Part shown: positions 3,201 through 63,131 of the stretch, piece by piece
Position numbering within the stretch: position 1 is the stretch's first letter
Layout of the letters: every line of letters starts with the position of its first letter
Assembly: GCA_030390025.1 (NCBI GenBank)
Contig: CM059446.1
Span: 38,254,001-38,318,000, forward strand
Length of the DNA stretch: 64,000 bases
Direction: 5' to 3'
Source of the DNA: Squalus acanthias
Taxonomy: Eukaryota
The notes under the pieces: model-generated
Told to the model about the DNA's origin: nothing
The model's database searches: none
Seen by the model: only the letters and a program-made list of their open reading frames with translations
Made by a program: the position numbers and the translations under genes

Positions 3201-6200
3201 TTTCTGCAAATTTGAAGTTGGACGCTGATACAAATCTCAGTTTTGACCGGGCCGAGTTCTGCATGGTTCGGCCTTGAATAAAGCCTAAGTATTCTTTAGA
3301 AATGGCTGAATTTACAGTTGACAGTTTGGAAAGAGAGCCAAGCCTGCTTTTTCACTTGACCATTGATTTCTACCAGCAAAGAGTGGTTCAGTTCTGGCTC
3401 TGAGTTTAGTGGGTTTAGCTTCTGATTCAACCAAAATAAATATGAGAATCAAGAACAGTTTGCTCTTCTCTGATTTATTTTTTTATTATTGAAGAAATAA
3501 CAGTACCTTTTTTTATTACATTAAAAAAATATATATATTAGCCGTACCAGTAAACAACAGCAAACAGTAACTAAATTATATTTAAAGCAACTTTCTTTTC
3601 CAAAATAATAAATGGCATTCATATTTTATGTTATCAGCTTTTTAACTCTAGTTTCACTGAATCAAATAATTAACATCATGTTGCCTCTCCATTCAATCCA
3701 GGCTATTACCTGAATGTAACACTGGTACTATGGAATAGAAGAGACTTATTTGGTTCTAAACATTATGTCCGTATTGTTATTACACAACATTTACAATGGA
3801 CTAGACGTTATTATGCAGTGAGGTTTCAATTGACCGAATAACGAAAAAGCACCTCATCTTCTCAGTTGTATCTATGAATAATTAAAAACCCTAATGTACT
3901 CAGGTCATTTGGGTTCATAGTGGAGTCTTAGCACAGTCGAAAACATCTCTCCTCATAGTGTACTTTTTTTTCTGCAATTTAAAATTCGGTGCCAGGTTCT
4001 GGGAAGAGCTAGGACTTGGCACAGGTTTTACTGTAATTTGCAATCTGCAGCGTATGCTAGCTGAGACCCTTTCCTTCAGCTTGCTTGGTAGAGTCAATAG
4101 GGGGCATCCCTCATCTGTCATAGAGAAAAAATAGCTGAATTCTAATTAGCATTCTATTTGTCAGCGGTAAGGTTGCTGTCGTTAGATTCTGGATCTCATT
4201 GTTTCAGATAGATTGCCAGCTATTTTTTTTTTCTTACCCCTGGCATGAGAGAACTGGTGCCTTATTTTATTACCAAAAGACTTAGGCTGAGGGAATGCTG
4301 GTGGAATGTGAGTCCTGTGTTTAAAAATGCCAACCGAGCTTTTTAGTTCCTGCTTTCATCTTGGCACTGTTGCCAAGGGCTGGCAGGGCTTCTATGCTCC
4401 TTGTGACTCAATGGAGTGCAACTGAAAAACTCAGGGATGCTTCAAATACTTAAACCAGGCTTTGGATCCTGACCAGAAAGGATCACGCTATGCGTCAATG
4501 GGGAGACCACAAAAATGAACCTCAATGCTTGCTTTTAATGTTTTTTTTCTCGAGTGTTAGAAACAAAACTGAATATAATGGTAGACTGCAAAATTACAAA
4601 TGTTTCAGATAAAGTCTTAGACAGTTTGCGAATTGCACATTTTACAACATGTTTTGAAAAGATTGGAAGATATTATATGGTACACCTACACATGAAAGGT
4701 GACATTATCTTACTTAAAATGACAATATTAGCTTTCATTAAGAGTATTCAAAGGAACATTGCTAGTACCAGACTTACAATATTTTTGCTTCATATCATTA
4801 AACCGCCATGCTAAATACATTTCATGTTTTCATAATATACTTTAAGGATTCTGTGTTCTCTGCCTCAATCTTAATTAATTAATATTCAGGAATAAGATGC
4901 TTATCTGAGTAACTATATCACCTATAATGACTAGTACACGCAAACAATATGTTGAAACTGCAAATATATACATCATTAAAAATCAAACATATTTGACATT
5001 ACAGCACTTGAATTATAATTTTAAAAAGGCAGATGCTTTGGAATACATAAGCAGCAATATGTAAGAAAATATGATTCTTGTGCCCTTTTATGATACAATA
5101 GTGTGAAATTACTCTGTTTTTTTAAAAGAGTGATTTCAAAAGCTGGAATTTGTGCAGTTTTTACATTTAAAATTCAATAAAAGACGTTAATAAATTAACA
5201 CATTTCAGCACTAGTTGTTTAAAAGTGGCACAAATCTCAATACAAGAAGTGACAGTTTAGATAGGCTTGCTTATCCCTGTACATACATGGACACAGAAGG
5301 GGAATTTAATGTAACTGTACAAAAAAAAAGCCTTGTGATTTATTAACTGTCTGGACAGTTGACTGCTGATGTGAAATTTACTGGTAATTTATCTCGTCTG
5401 AACAAGGTTTACGTTTTTGTTAGCATGATAGATCTGAAGAAATTCATAAATTGTAGTCAGCTTTGGCTTTTGTCAGTGTGAACTGTTTAAGGGCTAATGT
5501 CAATTAAAGTTTCAAACTGACACACAAACAGGTTTTATCACTCTGTCACATCCATCGACAAAGAACAGTGGAATGGAAGAAACCTACAGACCCTTTCCTA
5601 ATAGTCTCCGAACTTACCATTTTATTAGATTTTTTCATTTGGTGCAGGAATGTAGCTGTGGTCCTCAAAGGGTAAGAAAAAAAAATGGTTCCTCACAAAC
5701 TAAAATTCATTGGTATCTAAAGGTGAGAATACCAAGTAGGTTGAATATATTTCGGAGACAAATGTTTTTGCATAATGAATGCATACTTTGCTAGATAGTT
5801 CTGTATTTTCATGTCATTTGAGAATTCCATTTCCTATCTGTGAAGAGAGCCAGATGGCATTGAAATGGAATGACCTGTGAGATCGTAACCGCTACCAGCG
5901 GAAGCCTCCACTAATCCACAGTCTCCGTTTTGTTGAACTTTCCCCACATTCGCTGTCGCCTCCTCATTTTGCCCCTTGTCGGTGGTTCCCTAGAGCAGGG
6001 GAGCTGCACCAAGCATCTCTGCTGCCCTCTTTTCACCTTCTGAAAAATTAAGTCAGAATGAAAAGCAGGAGGGGAAGAAAAAACAATTACCTTAAGAGAA
6101 TATCTGCCTTTATTAAACTGCTTTCCATGTTATTGATTTTGTTTGGGGCCAAGGAAAATAATTAGACCTTGAGCTCTAATAGAATGCAGAATGCAATTTC

Positions 6201-29881: not shown

Positions 29882-32537
29882 ATGATCGACAAGATGGCTC
29901 CTGTGCTGGCAGCTCCCTAGGGAGCTCCTTTGCCATCCTTGGCCATCCGTTGCCATCCTTTGCTCTTTTTCCTCCCAGTCTCCTCTCTTCTGCTGTTTAA
30001 TTTCCCCTGGCTCTAATAGTGGGTGTATTTTATCCCTAACTGCAAGTTCAAGCTGCAAGGTTAAAGTTACCTGAGCCCACTGCCCATCCCCCGACCATGC
30101 CTGTTCTTTGTTCTCAGTGAGCACTGGCTCTTCACTTAAACTTAGCTCCCAAATTCCCAGACCTCTCTGCCGTCAAGACTACGCTTCTCCACTAGACTAG
30201 TGATCTAGTGACTAGTGGATCGCGAGTGGAGTTCGGGGCCAGGGATCGCGAGAATATCAGTGCTAATTTGACCCTGTGAGAGACAACATCATTCATGTCC
30301 GAGGCCGGGACCCAGGAGCGAGGACGAGCCCAGCAGCGAGGTCAAGGCCCAGGAGTGGCGCAGCGTGGACCAGCAGCGGGGTCGGGGCCCAGGGAAGGTG
30401 CGGCACAGGCCAACAGCGAGGTCGGGAGGACCACAATGCATCCTACGAAACCCAGGCAGAGAGGACCTGCGGGAAGGAGGGAGGAGGACAGTAGGAGTAT
30501 GTTTGTGTGTGTGTGCTAGGCCGTTGTAGCAGAGCCTGGTCTCCAATCGTCTTGGATCCCCTTGCCATTGGACCAAGACCTTGCTCTGTCAAGCCCGTGT
30601 GGTAGCTGGTGTGCAACGGCCACCCCACATTAAAATAATTCACTCATAGGCATCTTCCACCCTTTTAAATGAAGTTCGGGACCTGGAATGTCAGGACCCT
30701 CATGGACAACCCCAGCAGTGACAGACCGGAACGCCGTACTGCTATCGTTGCCCGGGAGCTCAGACGTTTCGACATTGACATCGCCGCCCTAAGTGAGACC
30801 CGGCGGGCAGGGGAAGGCCAGCTCAAGGAGCAAGGCGGTGGCTACACCTTCTTCTGGAAAGGCAAACCTGAAGAAGAACGCCGCCTCCATGGGGTAGGCT
30901 TCGCCATAAAAAATGAACTAGTTGGGCGTCTCAGAGACTCCCCTAGCGGTATAAACGAGCGCCTCATGACTCTTCGGCTCACCCTAACCCGGAACCAGTG
31001 CGCTACGGTCATCAGTGCGTACGCCCCAACACTGGAAGCCACAGACGAGACCAAAGAGGAATTCTACTCCAGCCTCGAACAATCCCTGTCCCGAGTCCCA
31101 ACGGGCGACAAGCTGATCCTCCTTGGAGACTTTAACGCCAGAGTTGGAAAGGACACTGACCTCTGGGGAGGTGTGATCGGCAGAGAGGGGGTAGGGAAAG
31201 CCAACTCCAACGGTACCCTCCTCCTGTCGAATTGCTTAGAACATGGCCTTGTCATAACCAACACCTTGTTCCGTCAGAGAGACAAGTACAAGGCTTCAAG
31301 GCCACACCCTCGCTCCAAGCACTGGCACCTGCTGGATTACGTCATCAACCGAGCGAGGGACCGCAAGGACGTCCGCATCACCCGCGCCATGACAGGAGCT
31401 GACGACTGCTGGACAGACCACCGCCTAATCTGCTCTGTCATCTCCATCAACGTAGCCCCAAAACAGCGGCGGCAACAGAAACAATGCCGCAGGAAAATTA
31501 ACGCTGGAGCACTCAAAGACCCCGTTAAGAAAGCCCTATTCAGCCTGTGCCTCACAAACAACCTGACGACTCCCAGTGATGCAGAGACACATAGTGCCCA
31601 CAGCGCCTGGTCTGCACTAAAGGCCTCCATAATCAGCACCTGTGAAGAGACGCTCGGTCACTCGACCAGGAAACACCAAGACTGGTTCGACAAGAACGAC
31701 CAGGAGATCCAGGAGCTAATAAGCCGCAAGCGCAAGGCATTCCTGATCTGGAAACAGCAACAGAACTCGAGAGCAAGGAAGCAGCTCTACAGATGCCTGA
31801 AGGCCGAGGTCCAACAAAAAACTCGCGACCTAAAGAACAGATGGTGGATGGAGAAAGCGCAGGAGATCCAGCAGCTAGCCGACAACCACGATGTGCGTGG
31901 ATTCTTTAGCGCAGTCAAGACCATCTACGGCCCAAGCACCCAAGGCTCTACCCCACTGCGGGCCAAGAACGGAGAGGTACTCATCAAGGACAGAGAGGTA
32001 GTCAGTGCCCGCTGGAAGGAGCACTTCGAAGATCTCCTTCACCGCGACTCTGTCTTCGACGCGAGTGTCCTCAACTCCATCCCGCAGCATGCTACCCGCC
32101 ACCATCTCAGCACAACCCCAGCCCGGCATGAGGTTGAAAAGGCCATCCGACAACTGAAGAACAACAAGGCCTCAGGAGCAGATGGAATCCCCGCCGAAGC
32201 ACTAAAGCATGGCGGAGAAGCACTACTGGTGCGAATTCATGAACTCATTTCCTTATATCCCTGGCCCAAGACCGCACAAAGTGGAGGAGAAGCATCCGGG
32301 AAGGCGCCGAACACCTCGAGTCTCTTCGCCGGGAGCAAGCGGAAGCCAAGCACAGGCAGCGCAAGGAGCGCACGTCAACCCAAGCACCCCACCCACCTGC
32401 CCCTTCAACCACCGTCTGCCCCACCTGTGACAGAGACTGTAGGTCCCACATTGGACTCATCAGTCACCTGCAAACTCATTTTTAATGTGGAAGCAAGTCA
32501 TCCTCGGTTCCAAGGGACTGCCTAAGAAGAAGAGAAG
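29882..32537 (+). mobile_element. RTE-clade LINE with both ends and an internal RT deletion
   Basis: 11-bp TSD gttccaccgaa (29871-29881 and 32538-32548); about 790-bp 5' UTR; (aag)n tail; GC/CpG-rich relative to the flanks. Confidence 0.93.
30669..32525 (+). CDS. RTE ORF: AP endonuclease plus linker, RT domain deleted, out-of-frame tail (618 aa)
   Basis: APE motifs TWNVRT, LSETR, YAPT, GDFNA, LDYV and TDHRL, then KASGADGIPAE (pre-RT). Homology breaks at about 32255-32260 and there is no YADD. A shifted frame from 32261 encodes LAQDRTKWR...CPTCDRDCRSHIGLISHLQTHF*, the RTE C-terminal C2H2 finger. Confidence 0.88.
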   Translation: MKFGTWNVRTLMDNPSSDRPERRTAIVARELRRFDIDIAALSETRRAGEGQLKEQGGGYTFFWKGKPEEERRLHGVGFAIKNELVGRLRDSPSGINERLMTLRLTLTRNQCATVISAYAPTLEATDETKEEFYSSLEQSLSRVPTGDKLILLGDFNARVGKDTDLWGGVIGREGVGKANSNGTLLLSNCLEHGLVITNTLFRQRDKYKASRPHPRSKHWHLLDYVINRARDRKDVRITRAMTGADDCWTDHRLICSVISINVAPKQRRQQKQCRRKINAGALKDPVKKALFSLCLTNNLTTPSDAETHSAHSAWSALKASIISTCEETLGHSTRKHQDWFDKNDQEIQELISRKRKAFLIWKQQQNSRARKQLYRCLKAEVQQKTRDLKNRWWMEKAQEIQQLADNHDVRGFFSAVKTIYGPSTQGSTPLRAKNGEVLIKDREVVSARWKEHFEDLLHRDSVFDASVLNSIPQHATRHHLSTTPARHEVEKAIRQLKNNKASGADGIPAEALKHGGEALLVRIHELISLYPWPKTAQSGGEASGKAPNTSSLFAGSKRKPSTGSARSARQPKHPTHLPLQPPSAPPVTETVGPTLDSSVTCKLIFNVEASHPRFQGTA

Positions 32538-54599: not shown

Positions 54600-55200
54600 A
54601 TCAGTGAATTTGCAACATTACCCTGAGAGAGGAAGCCTAGTGATGGATAGTACAGATCTTGGAGGCAGTACTAGGAACACGAGAGTGCCACTCCTTTCCT
54701 TCTTTCTACATTGCAACAACTTACATCCAGTCACCAATTTGGCTTCAAGGCAAATTGGCCAACCAGTGATGCTCTTGATCTCAGATTCCAAAATGGAGAG
54801 CTTTGGCCAATACTCAGTTTGGAGATCGGGAATGAACCCCTCAACATTTGCAAAGCCTGTAATTACTATACAGCATTTTGTACTTAACGAAAGAACTTTA
54901 GCGCCTTTCACAACATTAAGACATCCCAAAATACTTCACAGACGAGTACTTTTTGAATGTAGTCACTGTTGTAATATGGCCAAACACAACAGCCAATTTG
55001 CACACAACCAAGTTTCACAAATGGCAATGAGATTTGATGGGGTGTATTGAGCTTCTGTTATGGGGCGAATAAGTTTGATGATACCAGCCTTAATGCCACA
55101 ACGCCCTCCACCTCCTTCTACACTGCCCTGGACTTCCCACTATCACTGATCTTTCTCACTTTGGATGGAGCCACTCATTGCAGGGGTGTGATCAAATGTA
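54600..55200 (+). pseudogene. Degenerate LINE RT fragment interrupted by a SINE
   Basis: QLTSSHQFGFKANWPTSDAL (RT QxGFR..xSTxDAL motif) and, after the SINE, KFDDTSL (cf. FADDT). Confidence 0.55.
54890..55035 (-). mobile_element. DeuSINE 3' fragment
   Basis: tagcgcctttcacaac...gacatcccaaa...tgtagtcactgttgtaat...cagccaatttgcaca. Confidence 0.82.
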
Positions 55201-55255
55201 TACAAGTAGTCGTTATCAAAATCAACTTTAACCACTCCCTAGTGGTGTTGTACTG

Positions 55256-55597
55256 ATGCGGAGATGCCGGTGTTGGACTGGGGTGGACAAAATTGAGAGG
55301 TCGCACAACACCAGGTTATAGTCCAACAGTTTTATTTGAAATCACAAGCTTTCGGAGCTATCACTCCTTCCTCAGGTGAAGTAAATTGGATACAGAATCG
55401 CCAGAGCATATATAGATGGAAAAAAAAAGCATGTGTACTTTACAATTGTAAAGTACACATGCTTTTTTTTTCCATCTATATATGCTCTGGCGATTCTGTA
55501 TCCAATTTACTTCACCTGAGGAAGGAGTGATAGCTCCGAAAGCTTGTGATTTCAAATAAAACTGTTGGACTATAACCTGGTGTTGTGCGACCTCTCA
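55256..55597 (-). mobile_element. Penelope-like-element terminus with an inverted copy, forming a 304-bp palindrome
   Basis: TSD gtgttgtactg (55245-55255 and 55598-55608); 38-bp unpaired end atgcggagatgccggtgttggactggggtggacaaaat; palindrome 55294-55597 centred on tacaa|ttgta. The ORF track gives identical peptides on both strands. Confidence 0.9.
55512..55549 (+). ncRNA. Minimal hammerhead ribozyme motif (mirror copy at 55342-55379 on the minus strand)
   Basis: UCAC-CUGAGGA-A-GGAG(ugauag)CUCC-GAAA-GC-UU-GUGA: stem I UCAC/GUGA, core CUGANGA and GAAA, stem II GGAG/CUCC, 1-bp stem III inside palindromic AAGCUU. Activity untested. Confidence 0.72.
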
Positions 55598-57821
55598 GTG
55601 TTGTACTGAGCCATATAAAACAGGAAGGCCCCGGTTTCATAATTGGTGGGTAATGAGCTAAACTTTGCCAAGAAGGCAGTGAAGTACTACAATTGCCCTC
55701 AGTATCCCCAGGCTAGGGAGGGGAACATCGGCTTGGGTTCCTGATGACTATACAGTGAATCCTGCTGGAAGTATACCTTTGTGAACATTTGGTGAGGACA
55801 GGTACAAGTTTGTTTATGCTGCCCACCACCCCTCCCCCCACACTTTCATAGTTTAATAGCCTGCCGATATTTAATTTTGAGCGTGAAGAATGGCCGTTTA
55901 TGCAAGGCACCAGGCGGCTTCCAGAACCTGGGTAGATATCATCTTCAGGAGAGGAAGGGTTTGTGAAGAAAAATTAAGCAGGACAAAAAAGTGTCACCTT
56001 ATTAGTCATTCTACAGCAAAATAAAAACACGTTCTCACATAACTCCTGGACTCAATGGAGCCGAAAGTCATGAAGATTGGTAGACTGGACCAGAATGGCC
56101 CACTCCATCCCAGAGCTCATACTCGAATACTGCAAAATTGTGACCGGGAAAACGATCCATTACAAGATCAAGACTGCAACAGCAATGAAAGAATCTCTAG
56201 TGCTTGAGCCAGATATCTGTGTTAATGTGAGAAATAGAAATTCTGCTCCAACAGCACGTCAGCATTCTGTATCAGTCCCAAATGCATGTACAGAATGCCA
56301 GCAGCAAAGCCTGTACATTTATGAGCCTCTCTTACCTAGAAAACGTGTTTGCTGATAATGCCGCTGTCTGCAATCCTGCTCCCTGAGTACAGAAGTTCAG
56401 AGACAGAGTTAACCATCACCTGCTGAAGCTGGGTTGTTGGAGCATGCATTAGGCCACGGGAAGTCTCTGGACGTGCCCTTGTCACCCAGCATAAATTCTC
56501 AAGGCCTTTTTCGCACTCTCAGCAACTACCCGAGTCAATTCCGTGAGAAATCTGTCCTCATTAGCGCTGCCCCTGGCTGCACCCTGTTGTCATGCCACCT
56601 AATATACAAAAACAAAAACTAACGGTGGTGGCAGCTTTGCGGAAGAGATATAGTGGCCCTGGGGATTGCAGCAGCATGGAAATTGTAATGCTGACCTTCT
56701 GAAGAACAACATGACATTTCAGCATATAAATAAAGAAGCAATCCAGGCAAGCAATAAAGAGAAGCAAGGACAGCTTTGGTTATAAAGACAGTTAGAGTGG
56801 AGAGGAACAGGAGAAAGTGAAGTTGTGAGAAATTTGTAACAGTTAAGGACGGCACGTGCTGATGGGCTTCTGGTCATGATATTGTCATGCTGTAATGGGG
56901 TATATGTTGTATCTGACTCCACTGTGAAAACATTGGTTTACCATAATCACAAGATCGCCATTCATTACTAATATCACTTAGCACAACTTCAACTCCACAG
57001 TATGATCCATATTGTGTAACAAATATTAGCAATGAATGGGTTAATGCATTCTTATCAAATGTCTTTCCTCCATTATTATAACAAACCCATGAATCCATTT
57101 ATTTCAAATGCCTTCATTAAAGTAGCAGATGGAGGAAATAGCTTGCAAATGTGTAATGCATTTGTGAATACAACATCTGTATTTGTTGACTAAAATTATT
57201 TATTCCACTTCTCAAAGAGTATATATAACTCGCAGGTCTCCTTCATAAATCAAGTAAACGAGAACCCCGAAATTCGTTGGGATGGGATCCTGTCAGTTAC
57301 ATCAGGATTGTGTGCGCCGGTGCCCTCTAGCTCTATCCCTGCCCGTGTTCAGTGGGAGGACATTTAATTTCAATGCGGCAGGCATGTATAAGGGGGCCAA
57401 ATCTCTGGCATCTGCCTTCCCCATGCAGTCAGAAACTTTATTGCCTGCCTGCCATTGTGGGGGTTGCCATGTCTTCCACAAGTACCTGTATAAGGGCAGC
57501 AATCGAATCAGCCAATTCATTGAGGGACCGGGTTACCTCCTTAGACAGGACCTCAACAATGGGACCCAATCTGGATGATGCTGTGCTTCAACTCACTTGG
57601 CATACTGGCCTCCAGTACAACGGGTCTTGACTGAGCCAGTGGAGCAAGAACTTCCAGTGTAGGGAATCTTTCCACCCCCCACCCCACCCCCACTACCACA
57701 ACACTATTTGCCTTGTTAGGGGCGGACAGAGGTTCTGCCCCTTACAAAGCAGAAATCATAGAGGCCTGGAACAACTTGATCTTTTTTTCTAGGGGATCCA
57801 ACAATCTCCCACCCGAATTAC

Positions 57822-62510: not shown

Positions 62511-63131
62511 CCTGGATGAGTGCAGCTCCAACAACACTCAAGAAGCTCAACACCATCCAGGACAAAGCAGGCCGCTTGATTGGCACCCCATCCACCACTT
62601 TAAACATTCACTCCCTCCACCACCGGCGTACCGTGGCTGCAGTGTGCACCATCTACAAGATGCACTGCAGCAACTCGCCAAGGCTTCTTCGACAGCACCT
62701 CCAAAACCCGCGACCTCTACCACCTAGAAGGACAAGGGCAGCAGGCGCATGGGAACACCATCACCTCCAAGTTCCCCTCCAAGTCACACACCATTCTGAC
62801 TTAAATGAGAAGTCGCAAAACACCAGGTTATAGTCCAACAGTTTTATTTAAAATTACGAGCTTTCGGAGCTGCTGCCCCTTCGTCAGGTAGAGGTACCGT
62901 CAGGCATCTCCGCATCATTCTGACTTAGAAATATATCGCTGTTCCTTCATCATCACTGGGTCAAAATCCTGGAACTCCCTCCCTAACAACACCTTGGGAG
63001 TACCTTCACCACAAGGACTGCAGCGGTTCAAGAAGGCAACTCACCACCACCTTCTCAAGGGTAATTCGGGATGGGCAATAAATGCTGGCCTTGCCAGCAA
63101 CGCCCACATCCCAGGAACGAATAAAAAAAAA
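62511..63131 (+). mobile_element. Non-LTR retrotransposon 3' end (same family as 25762-26256) with a nested insertion
   Basis: MSAAPTTLKKLNTIQDKAGRLIG...; tail cccacatcccaggaacgaataaaaaaaaa. Confidence 0.9.
62804..62915 (+). mobile_element. 112-bp Penelope-like-element remnant (same family as 55256-55597)
   Basis: 12-bp TSD cattctgactta (62792-62803 and 62916-62927); one arm caccaggttatagtccaacagttttattt...ctttcggagc, then terminus ggcatctccgcat in the opposite orientation; hammerhead motif on the minus strand at 62855-62890. Confidence 0.88.

Follow-up and report, generated by a model that had tools for sequence, protein, structure and literature searches.

How does a perfect palindrome of 304 bases come to lie in a genome? 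The one studied here is part of a 64-kb window, the whole stretch of DNA that was analysed, and consists of two 152-nt arms with no mismatch and no spacer between them. The next-longest perfect palindromes in the window have arms of only 8 nt. A repeat search lengthens the arms to 159 nt at 99%. A sequence-only reading had described these arms, a minimal hammerhead motif on each strand, a target-site duplication and an unpaired end. Arms and motifs were found as described. Duplication and unpaired end are both present, with lengths of 12 bp and 37 nt rather than 11 bp and 38 bp: because the direct repeat flanking the insertion measures 12 bp, 37 unpaired nucleotides remain, and 3 further nucleotides are common to the tail and the duplication.

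Table 1 Features of the palindromic insertion, in window coordinates
Feature	Position	Strand	Remarks
Left target-site duplication, 12 bp	55245..55256	+	Last 3 nt match the element tail (microhomology at priming site)
Tail of the Penelope-like element (PLE), 37 nt	55257..55293	-	Left arm only; matches 581-620 of the natural full copy L034:3021-6744
Left arm, the pLTR's final 152 nt, inverted	55294..55445	-	
Hammerhead motif, minimal type I, mirror copy	55342..55379	-	Exact mirror of 55512-55549
TATA-like box of left arm, outward-facing	55408..55414	-	Putative promoter element, from sequence and position relative to clustered 5' ends
Centre hexamer CAATTG, self-complementary, element's own	55443..55448	.	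Common to both arms (6-nt overlap), as parsed at the junction
Right arm, the pLTR's final 152 nt in direct orientation	55446..55597	+	Stops at the first (tail-less) 3' end site
TATA-like box ~30 nt upstream of hammerhead	55477..55483	+	Putative promoter element
Hammerhead motif, minimal type I	55512..55549	+	Predicted cut after 55545
Right target-site duplication, 12 bp	55598..55609	+	
Old dispersed repeat forming the right flank	55610..55790	+	39 other matches, 71-90%, mostly across 55680-55790

The parent element and its hammerhead motifs

Over its 152 nt the right arm is 100% identical to at least 13 places outside the locus (among 42 matches listed), and in those linear copies the sequence runs on upstream into a 3.14-kb element. 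A natural copy, L034, has the arrangement pLTR-ORF-pLTR with a 921-aa open frame, which matches RVT_1 (E=1.3e-8) and GIY-YIG (22.9 bits vs a cut-off of 22.6). The parent thus has the single ORF of an endonuclease-bearing (EN+) PLE, with a reverse transcriptase (RT) and a GIY-YIG nuclease at the C-terminus, and its unit of 3,138-3,140 bp has repeated ends in L031, L033 and L034, as expected of tandem or partial-tandem pLTRs. The one-sided tail and the 12-bp duplication at the locus are further EN+ PLE features. The tail is the stretch between the element's two 3' end sites and extends to the first ATG of the ORF. Between RT and nuclease, upstream of the GIY-YIG core, the linker carries C-x4-C-x2-C. 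A CX2-5CxxC linker motif is given for Neptune and Nematis, and not for Penelope/Poseidon, in PMC8557442. The motif points to a Neptune/Nematis-type parent, and we set the Penelope/Poseidon clade aside on the same ground.

The locus is almost certainly a young, 5'-truncated head-to-head pLTR insertion of an abundant endonuclease-bearing PLE. The suggested link to Penelope-like elements is thereby supported, the arms being the pLTR 3' end of such an element. The proposal of a non-autonomous, retrozyme-like unit is not supported: each arm is simply the 5'-truncated end of an autonomous element. We also considered a MITE or fold-back DNA transposon. In such elements, inverted repeats reach both termini and are recognised by a transposase. 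Here, one end has the 37-nt unpaired tail and the arms are retroelement 3' ends, and this candidate was rejected. Elsewhere among the copies, head-to-head arms of 3,507 bp, 99.97% identical, make up a nearly full-length pair at L031:2384-9628; each arm has the 921-aa frame, and another tandem unit comes after the pair. Two open frames adjoin the element at L033:1-1371 (-); one of them, by eye, we take to resemble an envelope- or fusion-protein-type sequence.

To judge age, we used four outside runs, two of one organism from two studies and two of relatives. The flank contig aligns exactly to 55256 and then continues for 237-2,471 letters that are unlike the element; these contigs apparently represent the empty site. 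Arms 100% identical to linear copies and a site apparently empty in all four runs agree with the very recent age that had been claimed. The right flank is an old dispersed repeat, which we assume to be SINE-like. That the insertion lies in an old SINE has been only partly shown, because the left flank aligned with none of the 11 copies of this repeat in which colinearity was looked for.

Other repeats were seen nearby; the host's repeats look like those of a cartilaginous fish. The window also contains, at 62803-62889, an older relative of the same pLTR end, 87 bp long; the two are 86% identical, and the stretch takes in the hammerhead region. A 206-bp repeat at 54850-55055, presumably SINE-like, is multi-copy in the window and missing from the contigs of two related organisms; these contigs have 35 extra letters at 55161. 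The 618-aa open frame at 30669-32525 (+) contains an endonuclease/exonuclease/phosphatase domain (E=8.3e-11). This frame is a LINE-type ORF that stops before any recognisable RT domain.

The two hammerheads are passengers of the pLTR and predicted ribozymes. Each consists of stem I (UCAC/GUGA), the core CUGAGGA, an extra A, stem II, GAAA and a palindromic AAGCUU. These parts are those of the minimal type I motif of PLEs: CUGANGA and GAAA boxes, an extra nucleotide before stem II, the pair G10.1-C11.1 and a palindromic remnant of stem III. Among fetched copies with the motif, collected with a search pattern that itself demanded the boxes, variation lay mostly in N7 and loop II, and stem II was retained through G-U and lengthened pairs. 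An Rfam search returned no match to a hammerhead model at E<=10; its matches to miRNA and sRNA families were all under the gathering scores and were dismissed as generic hairpin. Folding z-scores were weak (-1.84, barely above shuffles, and -1.19), and folding two strands together failed to give the dimeric hammerhead. Support for the hammerhead call therefore comes from the boxes and from the way the copies vary.

Head-to-head insertions across the genome

A 30-mer from the pLTR end has 10,163 + 10,080 = 20,243 exact matches in the genome. Among the first 100 of these listed, 28 pairs lie head-to-head and none tail-to-tail. For the variant found in the window the matches number 205 + 203 = 408, and 26 pairs occur in the first 100 of that listing. 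We fetched these 54 pairs and parsed 53, calling an arm tailed at >=30 nt and tail-less at <=12 nt. Exactly one arm was tailed in 52 of the 53 (28/28 and 24/25) and no pair was two-tailed; the remaining pair has a 13-nt tail match that overlaps its duplication. Each double-ended insertion in this census uses each start site once. Duplications reached at least 10 bp in 49/53 pairs and were mostly 12-14 bp. The head-to-head layout is a routine product of this PLE family. A rough scaling-up of the 28 pairs per 100 matches, counted within the first 13 Mb of a single chromosome, would put ~5,700 head-to-head insertions in the genome; with 2-3 of 53 pairs spacer-less, perhaps 200-300 of these would have no spacer.

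Single-ended copies were examined as well. We fetched 32 of the 43 unpaired matches in the 30-mer listing, four of which turned out to be pairs with a mismatched partner. Of the single-ended copies, 24/28 were tail-less and 4/28 tailed, which makes the tail-less site an independent priming site. Within pairs, the tail-less arm was the longer in 31, the tailed arm in 14, and the two were equal in 8 (p=0.016).

The inner ends of the two arms coincide far more often than permutation predicts. In the young subfamily they lie <=2 nt apart in 5/25 pairs (0.24 expected) and <=30 nt apart in 11/25 (1.71 expected); in the broader set the figures are 3/26 (0.81 expected, p=0.039) and 13/26 (5.25 expected). 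Direct joins had an overlap of >=3 nt in 14 of 19 cases, vs 4.4% by chance, a count that BLAST-defined ends may overstate. Strictly perfect spacer-less centres were found in 2/53 pairs, plus L063 with one arm mismatch, and spacers of hundreds of nucleotides were common. A genome-wide gapped pattern over the ~20-nt zone just upstream of the arm start gave 50 rows (48 loci), 12 of them perfect palindromes. Zero-loop palindromes with only a 2-nt overlap had AT at six loci (five arm haplotypes) and TA at two, and a junction with a 4-bp stem and a 5-nt loop recurred in 8 of the 50 rows. Both arms carried the same subfamily marker in 12/12 pairs (0.26 expected), and for another marker in 16/18 (0.19 expected). 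Five private variants were mirrored on both arms and 16 were on one arm, several of the latter being junction artefacts. Homopolymer concordance in the young set (24/26 vs 0.79 expected) was uninformative. A 9-nt self-complementary insert at L118, at first sight a mirrored non-templated addition in favour of a folded-back cDNA, turned out to be copied from arm sequence close by.

At the hammerhead's upstream edge, ~30 nt past the TATA-like box, a stretch of 14 nt (L034:3021-6744, positions 3628-3641) took in 15 of 56 inner ends; these ends were again BLAST-defined, with possible bias from subfamily divergence. The cluster hints at a transcript 5' end there. The idea that hammerhead cleavage produces the 5' ends was rejected, with 1/56 inner ends at the predicted cut. 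If transcription does start at the cluster, the two arms would drive outward, non-hairpin transcripts. The full hairpin folds, by prediction, into rod-like dsRNA at -290.6 kcal/mol; such an RNA would form only upon read-through from outside, the TATA-like boxes facing outwards.

The sequence-only reading had also envisaged an amplifying family, and here the centres are informative. A genome search for the exact centre of the window palindrome found one other locus, L041, with the same layout (one-sided tail, 12-bp duplication) and with variants mirrored in both arms. Arms of L041 are 93% identical to L034, those of the window 99.4%. Loci lacking the centre supply 2 arms identical to that of L041 and 19 identical to that of the window. 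Because L041 mirrors the variants of another subfamily, its centre arose separately, and the idea of an amplifying family did not hold. Six copies of a neighbouring centre likewise represent five haplotypes. With subfamilies and haplotypes differing at shared centres, centres recur at hot spots and are not amplified. The case of L153/L154 is of another kind: two copies of this 381-bp palindrome lie 108 kb from each other and match at 100%, an 18-nt templated insert at the centre included; their flanks are unrelated and each has its own 13-bp duplication (L158:1394-1774 and L159:1360-1740; G000 C2). Possibly a whole palindrome was re-mobilised, or a single intermediate gave both copies. Two further apparent twins were discarded, L155 as a local tandem duplication and L156/L157 as different subfamilies that share a centre.

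Target positions inside other host repeats were reused by independent insertions on different chromosomes or far apart, with near-identical 12-14-bp duplications (L039/L059/L132/L134/L143/L149; L015/L144/L145; L044/L045; L052/L118). Such reuse suggests that certain target sites are strongly preferred, with microhomology to the two start sites as a possible cause. At L036:2698-5750, three head-to-head insertions of different ages lie within 3 kb of a minisatellite-like region, with their tails all on the same side.

Routes to a palindrome

How were the two arms joined? The centre of the palindrome is not new sequence: CAATTG is already palindromic in the linear element, where the final 320 nt of the pLTR hold six natural palindromes of >=6 nt, CAATTG among them. 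Taking identity and mechanism together, we think it somewhat likelier right than wrong that the locus is a head-to-head PLE insertion whose two separately primed cDNAs joined at CAATTG. The GIY-YIG nuclease would make a 12-nt staggered cut in the target. Of the two target 3' ends, one would prime at the tail-less start site and its partner ~40 nt further 3', where the tail ends, both probably on the same RNA, so that one reverse transcriptase trails the other. The leading enzyme may then stall, and the trailing cDNA would arrive at about the same coordinate. There the two cDNA 3' ends could pair via a short self-complementary patch, or one could jump to the other, and each cDNA would serve as template for the other half. 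A join on a natural micro-palindrome gives a spacer of zero. The tail-less arm is usually the longer; a self-copy therefore cannot supply the tail, and priming must have occurred twice. The coinciding ends, the microhomology, the shared markers and the zero-loop 2-nt centres would all follow from a pair of polymerases spaced 40 nt from each other on a single RNA.

Biochemistry offers precedent and one difficulty. A purified PLE in vitro cuts and extends both target strands, starts at two sites, one on either side of the tail, and is predicted to be a dimer (PMC11167929); in the same work the start site showed no difference between strands, which counts against the proposed mechanism. Other observations are also awkward for a join of two cDNAs. 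The junction with a 4-bp stem and 5-nt loop fits a single folded-back cDNA well, and arms of 450-980 nt ending <=2 nt apart are natural for one and need the assumption of a shared RNA for two. Mirrored private variants are what a single template would give, but rare source copies or a fold-back would account for them as well. Of the two sets, one showed spacer length scaling with arm length (rho 0.50, p=0.009) and the other did not (rho 0.20, p=0.34). A join of two cDNAs and a single snap-back leave the same finished DNA, so the census cannot prove the joining step. The main texts of the openly available papers searched held no statement of a model with two primers on one RNA.

In the closest competing account, one cDNA folds at or near CAATTG and copies itself, and a second short cDNA from the other start site provides the tail and the anchor at the far end. 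Self-priming has been proposed from such palindromes (PMC3846280), and the strong excess of coinciding inner ends, long arms included, the recurrent stem-loop junction and the mirrored private variants all favour it. Yet the fold available at the cDNA tip here is one C-G pair closing a 4-nt loop, and at eight loci the centre is zero-loop with an overlap of 2 nt; a hairpin loop cannot be so small. Spacers of hundreds of nucleotides are also common, and a second primer is still required. We regard this account as possible but rather unlikely. A simple self-primed hairpin, as first suggested for this locus, cannot be the whole story, given a tail on one arm only and a longer tail-less arm in 31/45 unequal pairs; the broader suggestion, that the structure records an integration intermediate, is supported. 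A published scheme starts from self-priming on an antisense transcript (PMC3846280), which yields extrachromosomal hairpin or palindromic DNA, and lets asymmetric resolution by the endonuclease leave the tail at one end (PMC8557442). It agrees with the strictly one-sided tails. However, the tail maps to two RT start sites on the sense RNA (PMC11167929), element ends overlap the duplications by a few nucleotides at many junctions, as target priming predicts, and tail-less single insertions require no hairpin. For the window we find it improbable.

Less probable again is that the palindrome is a non-autonomous mobile unit, transcribed and re-inserted whole, as the sequence-only reading had it. 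The twin at L153/L154, with its unrelated flanks, shows another palindrome present twice. For the window palindrome itself, the only other exact centre has arms identical to linear copies of another subfamily, 19 arms identical to its own come from loci without its centre, the six copies of the neighbouring centre fall into five haplotypes, and no tandem hammerhead array accompanies it. A single, unrelated centre-sharer largely refutes the case at this locus. That the palindrome is an assembly artefact of fold-back long reads we consider scarcely credible. The filled allele did appear in the contigs of none of the four outside runs, contigs which break at high-copy repeats and drop variants. 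But a folded-back read would mirror unique flank and would leave neither duplication nor one-sided tail; here the flanks differ, the duplication has 12 bp, and the one-sided tail is that of 52/53 sister insertions.

The join of two cDNAs and the re-mobilisation of whole palindromes can be combined. In this more tentative picture a PLE dimer would prime two cDNAs on one RNA, one per start site and target strand, and the trailing polymerase would join the leading tip. Every double-ended insertion would then be a one-tailed palindrome, and an occasional one would be re-mobilised whole, as L153/L154 may have been, seeding non-autonomous hairpin units.

Comparison with known systems

The locus is an ordinary product of a known kind of element, and its architecture has been published: head-to-head pLTRs, palindromes at junctions and a one-sided tail are described in PMC3846280 and PMC8557442, the latter naming PLE inverted-repeat formation as an open question. 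Its significance lies in the family-wide pattern. From the one-tail rule, together with the coincidence of inner ends and the centres with 2-nt overlaps, comes a specific model that can be tested in the existing in vitro PLE system, and hundreds of long perfect palindromes in a vertebrate genome would be natural material for a study of palindrome decay.

The nearest relatives are the inverted-pLTR insertions of EN+ PLEs in Adineta vaga (PMC3846280; scheme in PMC8557442). Like the insertion described here, these consist of a 5'-truncated inverted copy joined head-to-head, with a palindrome or overlap at the junction, a 30-40-bp tail at one end only, a target duplication of ~8-12 bp, and TATA and initiator inside the pLTR. 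Unlike those described there, the arms here are only 152 nt and there is no ORF and no spacer; the parent also differs from the Adineta families in its C-x4-C-x2-C linker and its 20,000-copy scale. The hammerheads resemble the minimal metazoan PLE motifs of PMC4209133 in their core boxes, the extra nucleotide before stem II, the G-C closing pair and the palindromic 15.2-16.2, and differ from those presented there in the predicted cut triplet, CUU. Dual motifs 100-700 bp apart on opposite strands had already been reported (PMC4209133). The Poseidon element PAc from Anolis, studied in vitro, likewise has two RT start sites bounding its tail, a hammerhead just upstream of them, and cutting and extension of both target strands (PMC11167929). 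PAc belongs to a different clade, and the main text of that paper neither treats inverted insertions nor assigns a start site to each arm.

Non-LTR (animal) retrozymes are similarly short, ORF-less and pLTR-related, with a type I hammerhead (bioRxiv 10.64898/2026.07.22.740005). As described there, however, they form tandem arrays and are proposed to move as circular RNA, unlike the single head-to-head pair found here. Classification as such a retrozyme was rejected: the locus has no head-to-tail hammerhead repeats, and its exact centre occurs at two loci from different subfamilies, with no amplifying unit. In L1 twin priming, two target-strand primers on one RNA lead to a 5' inversion with microhomology. 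The L1 cDNAs copy different parts of the RNA, whereas the PLE start sites lie ~40 nt apart, so that the same sequence is copied twice and a palindrome results.
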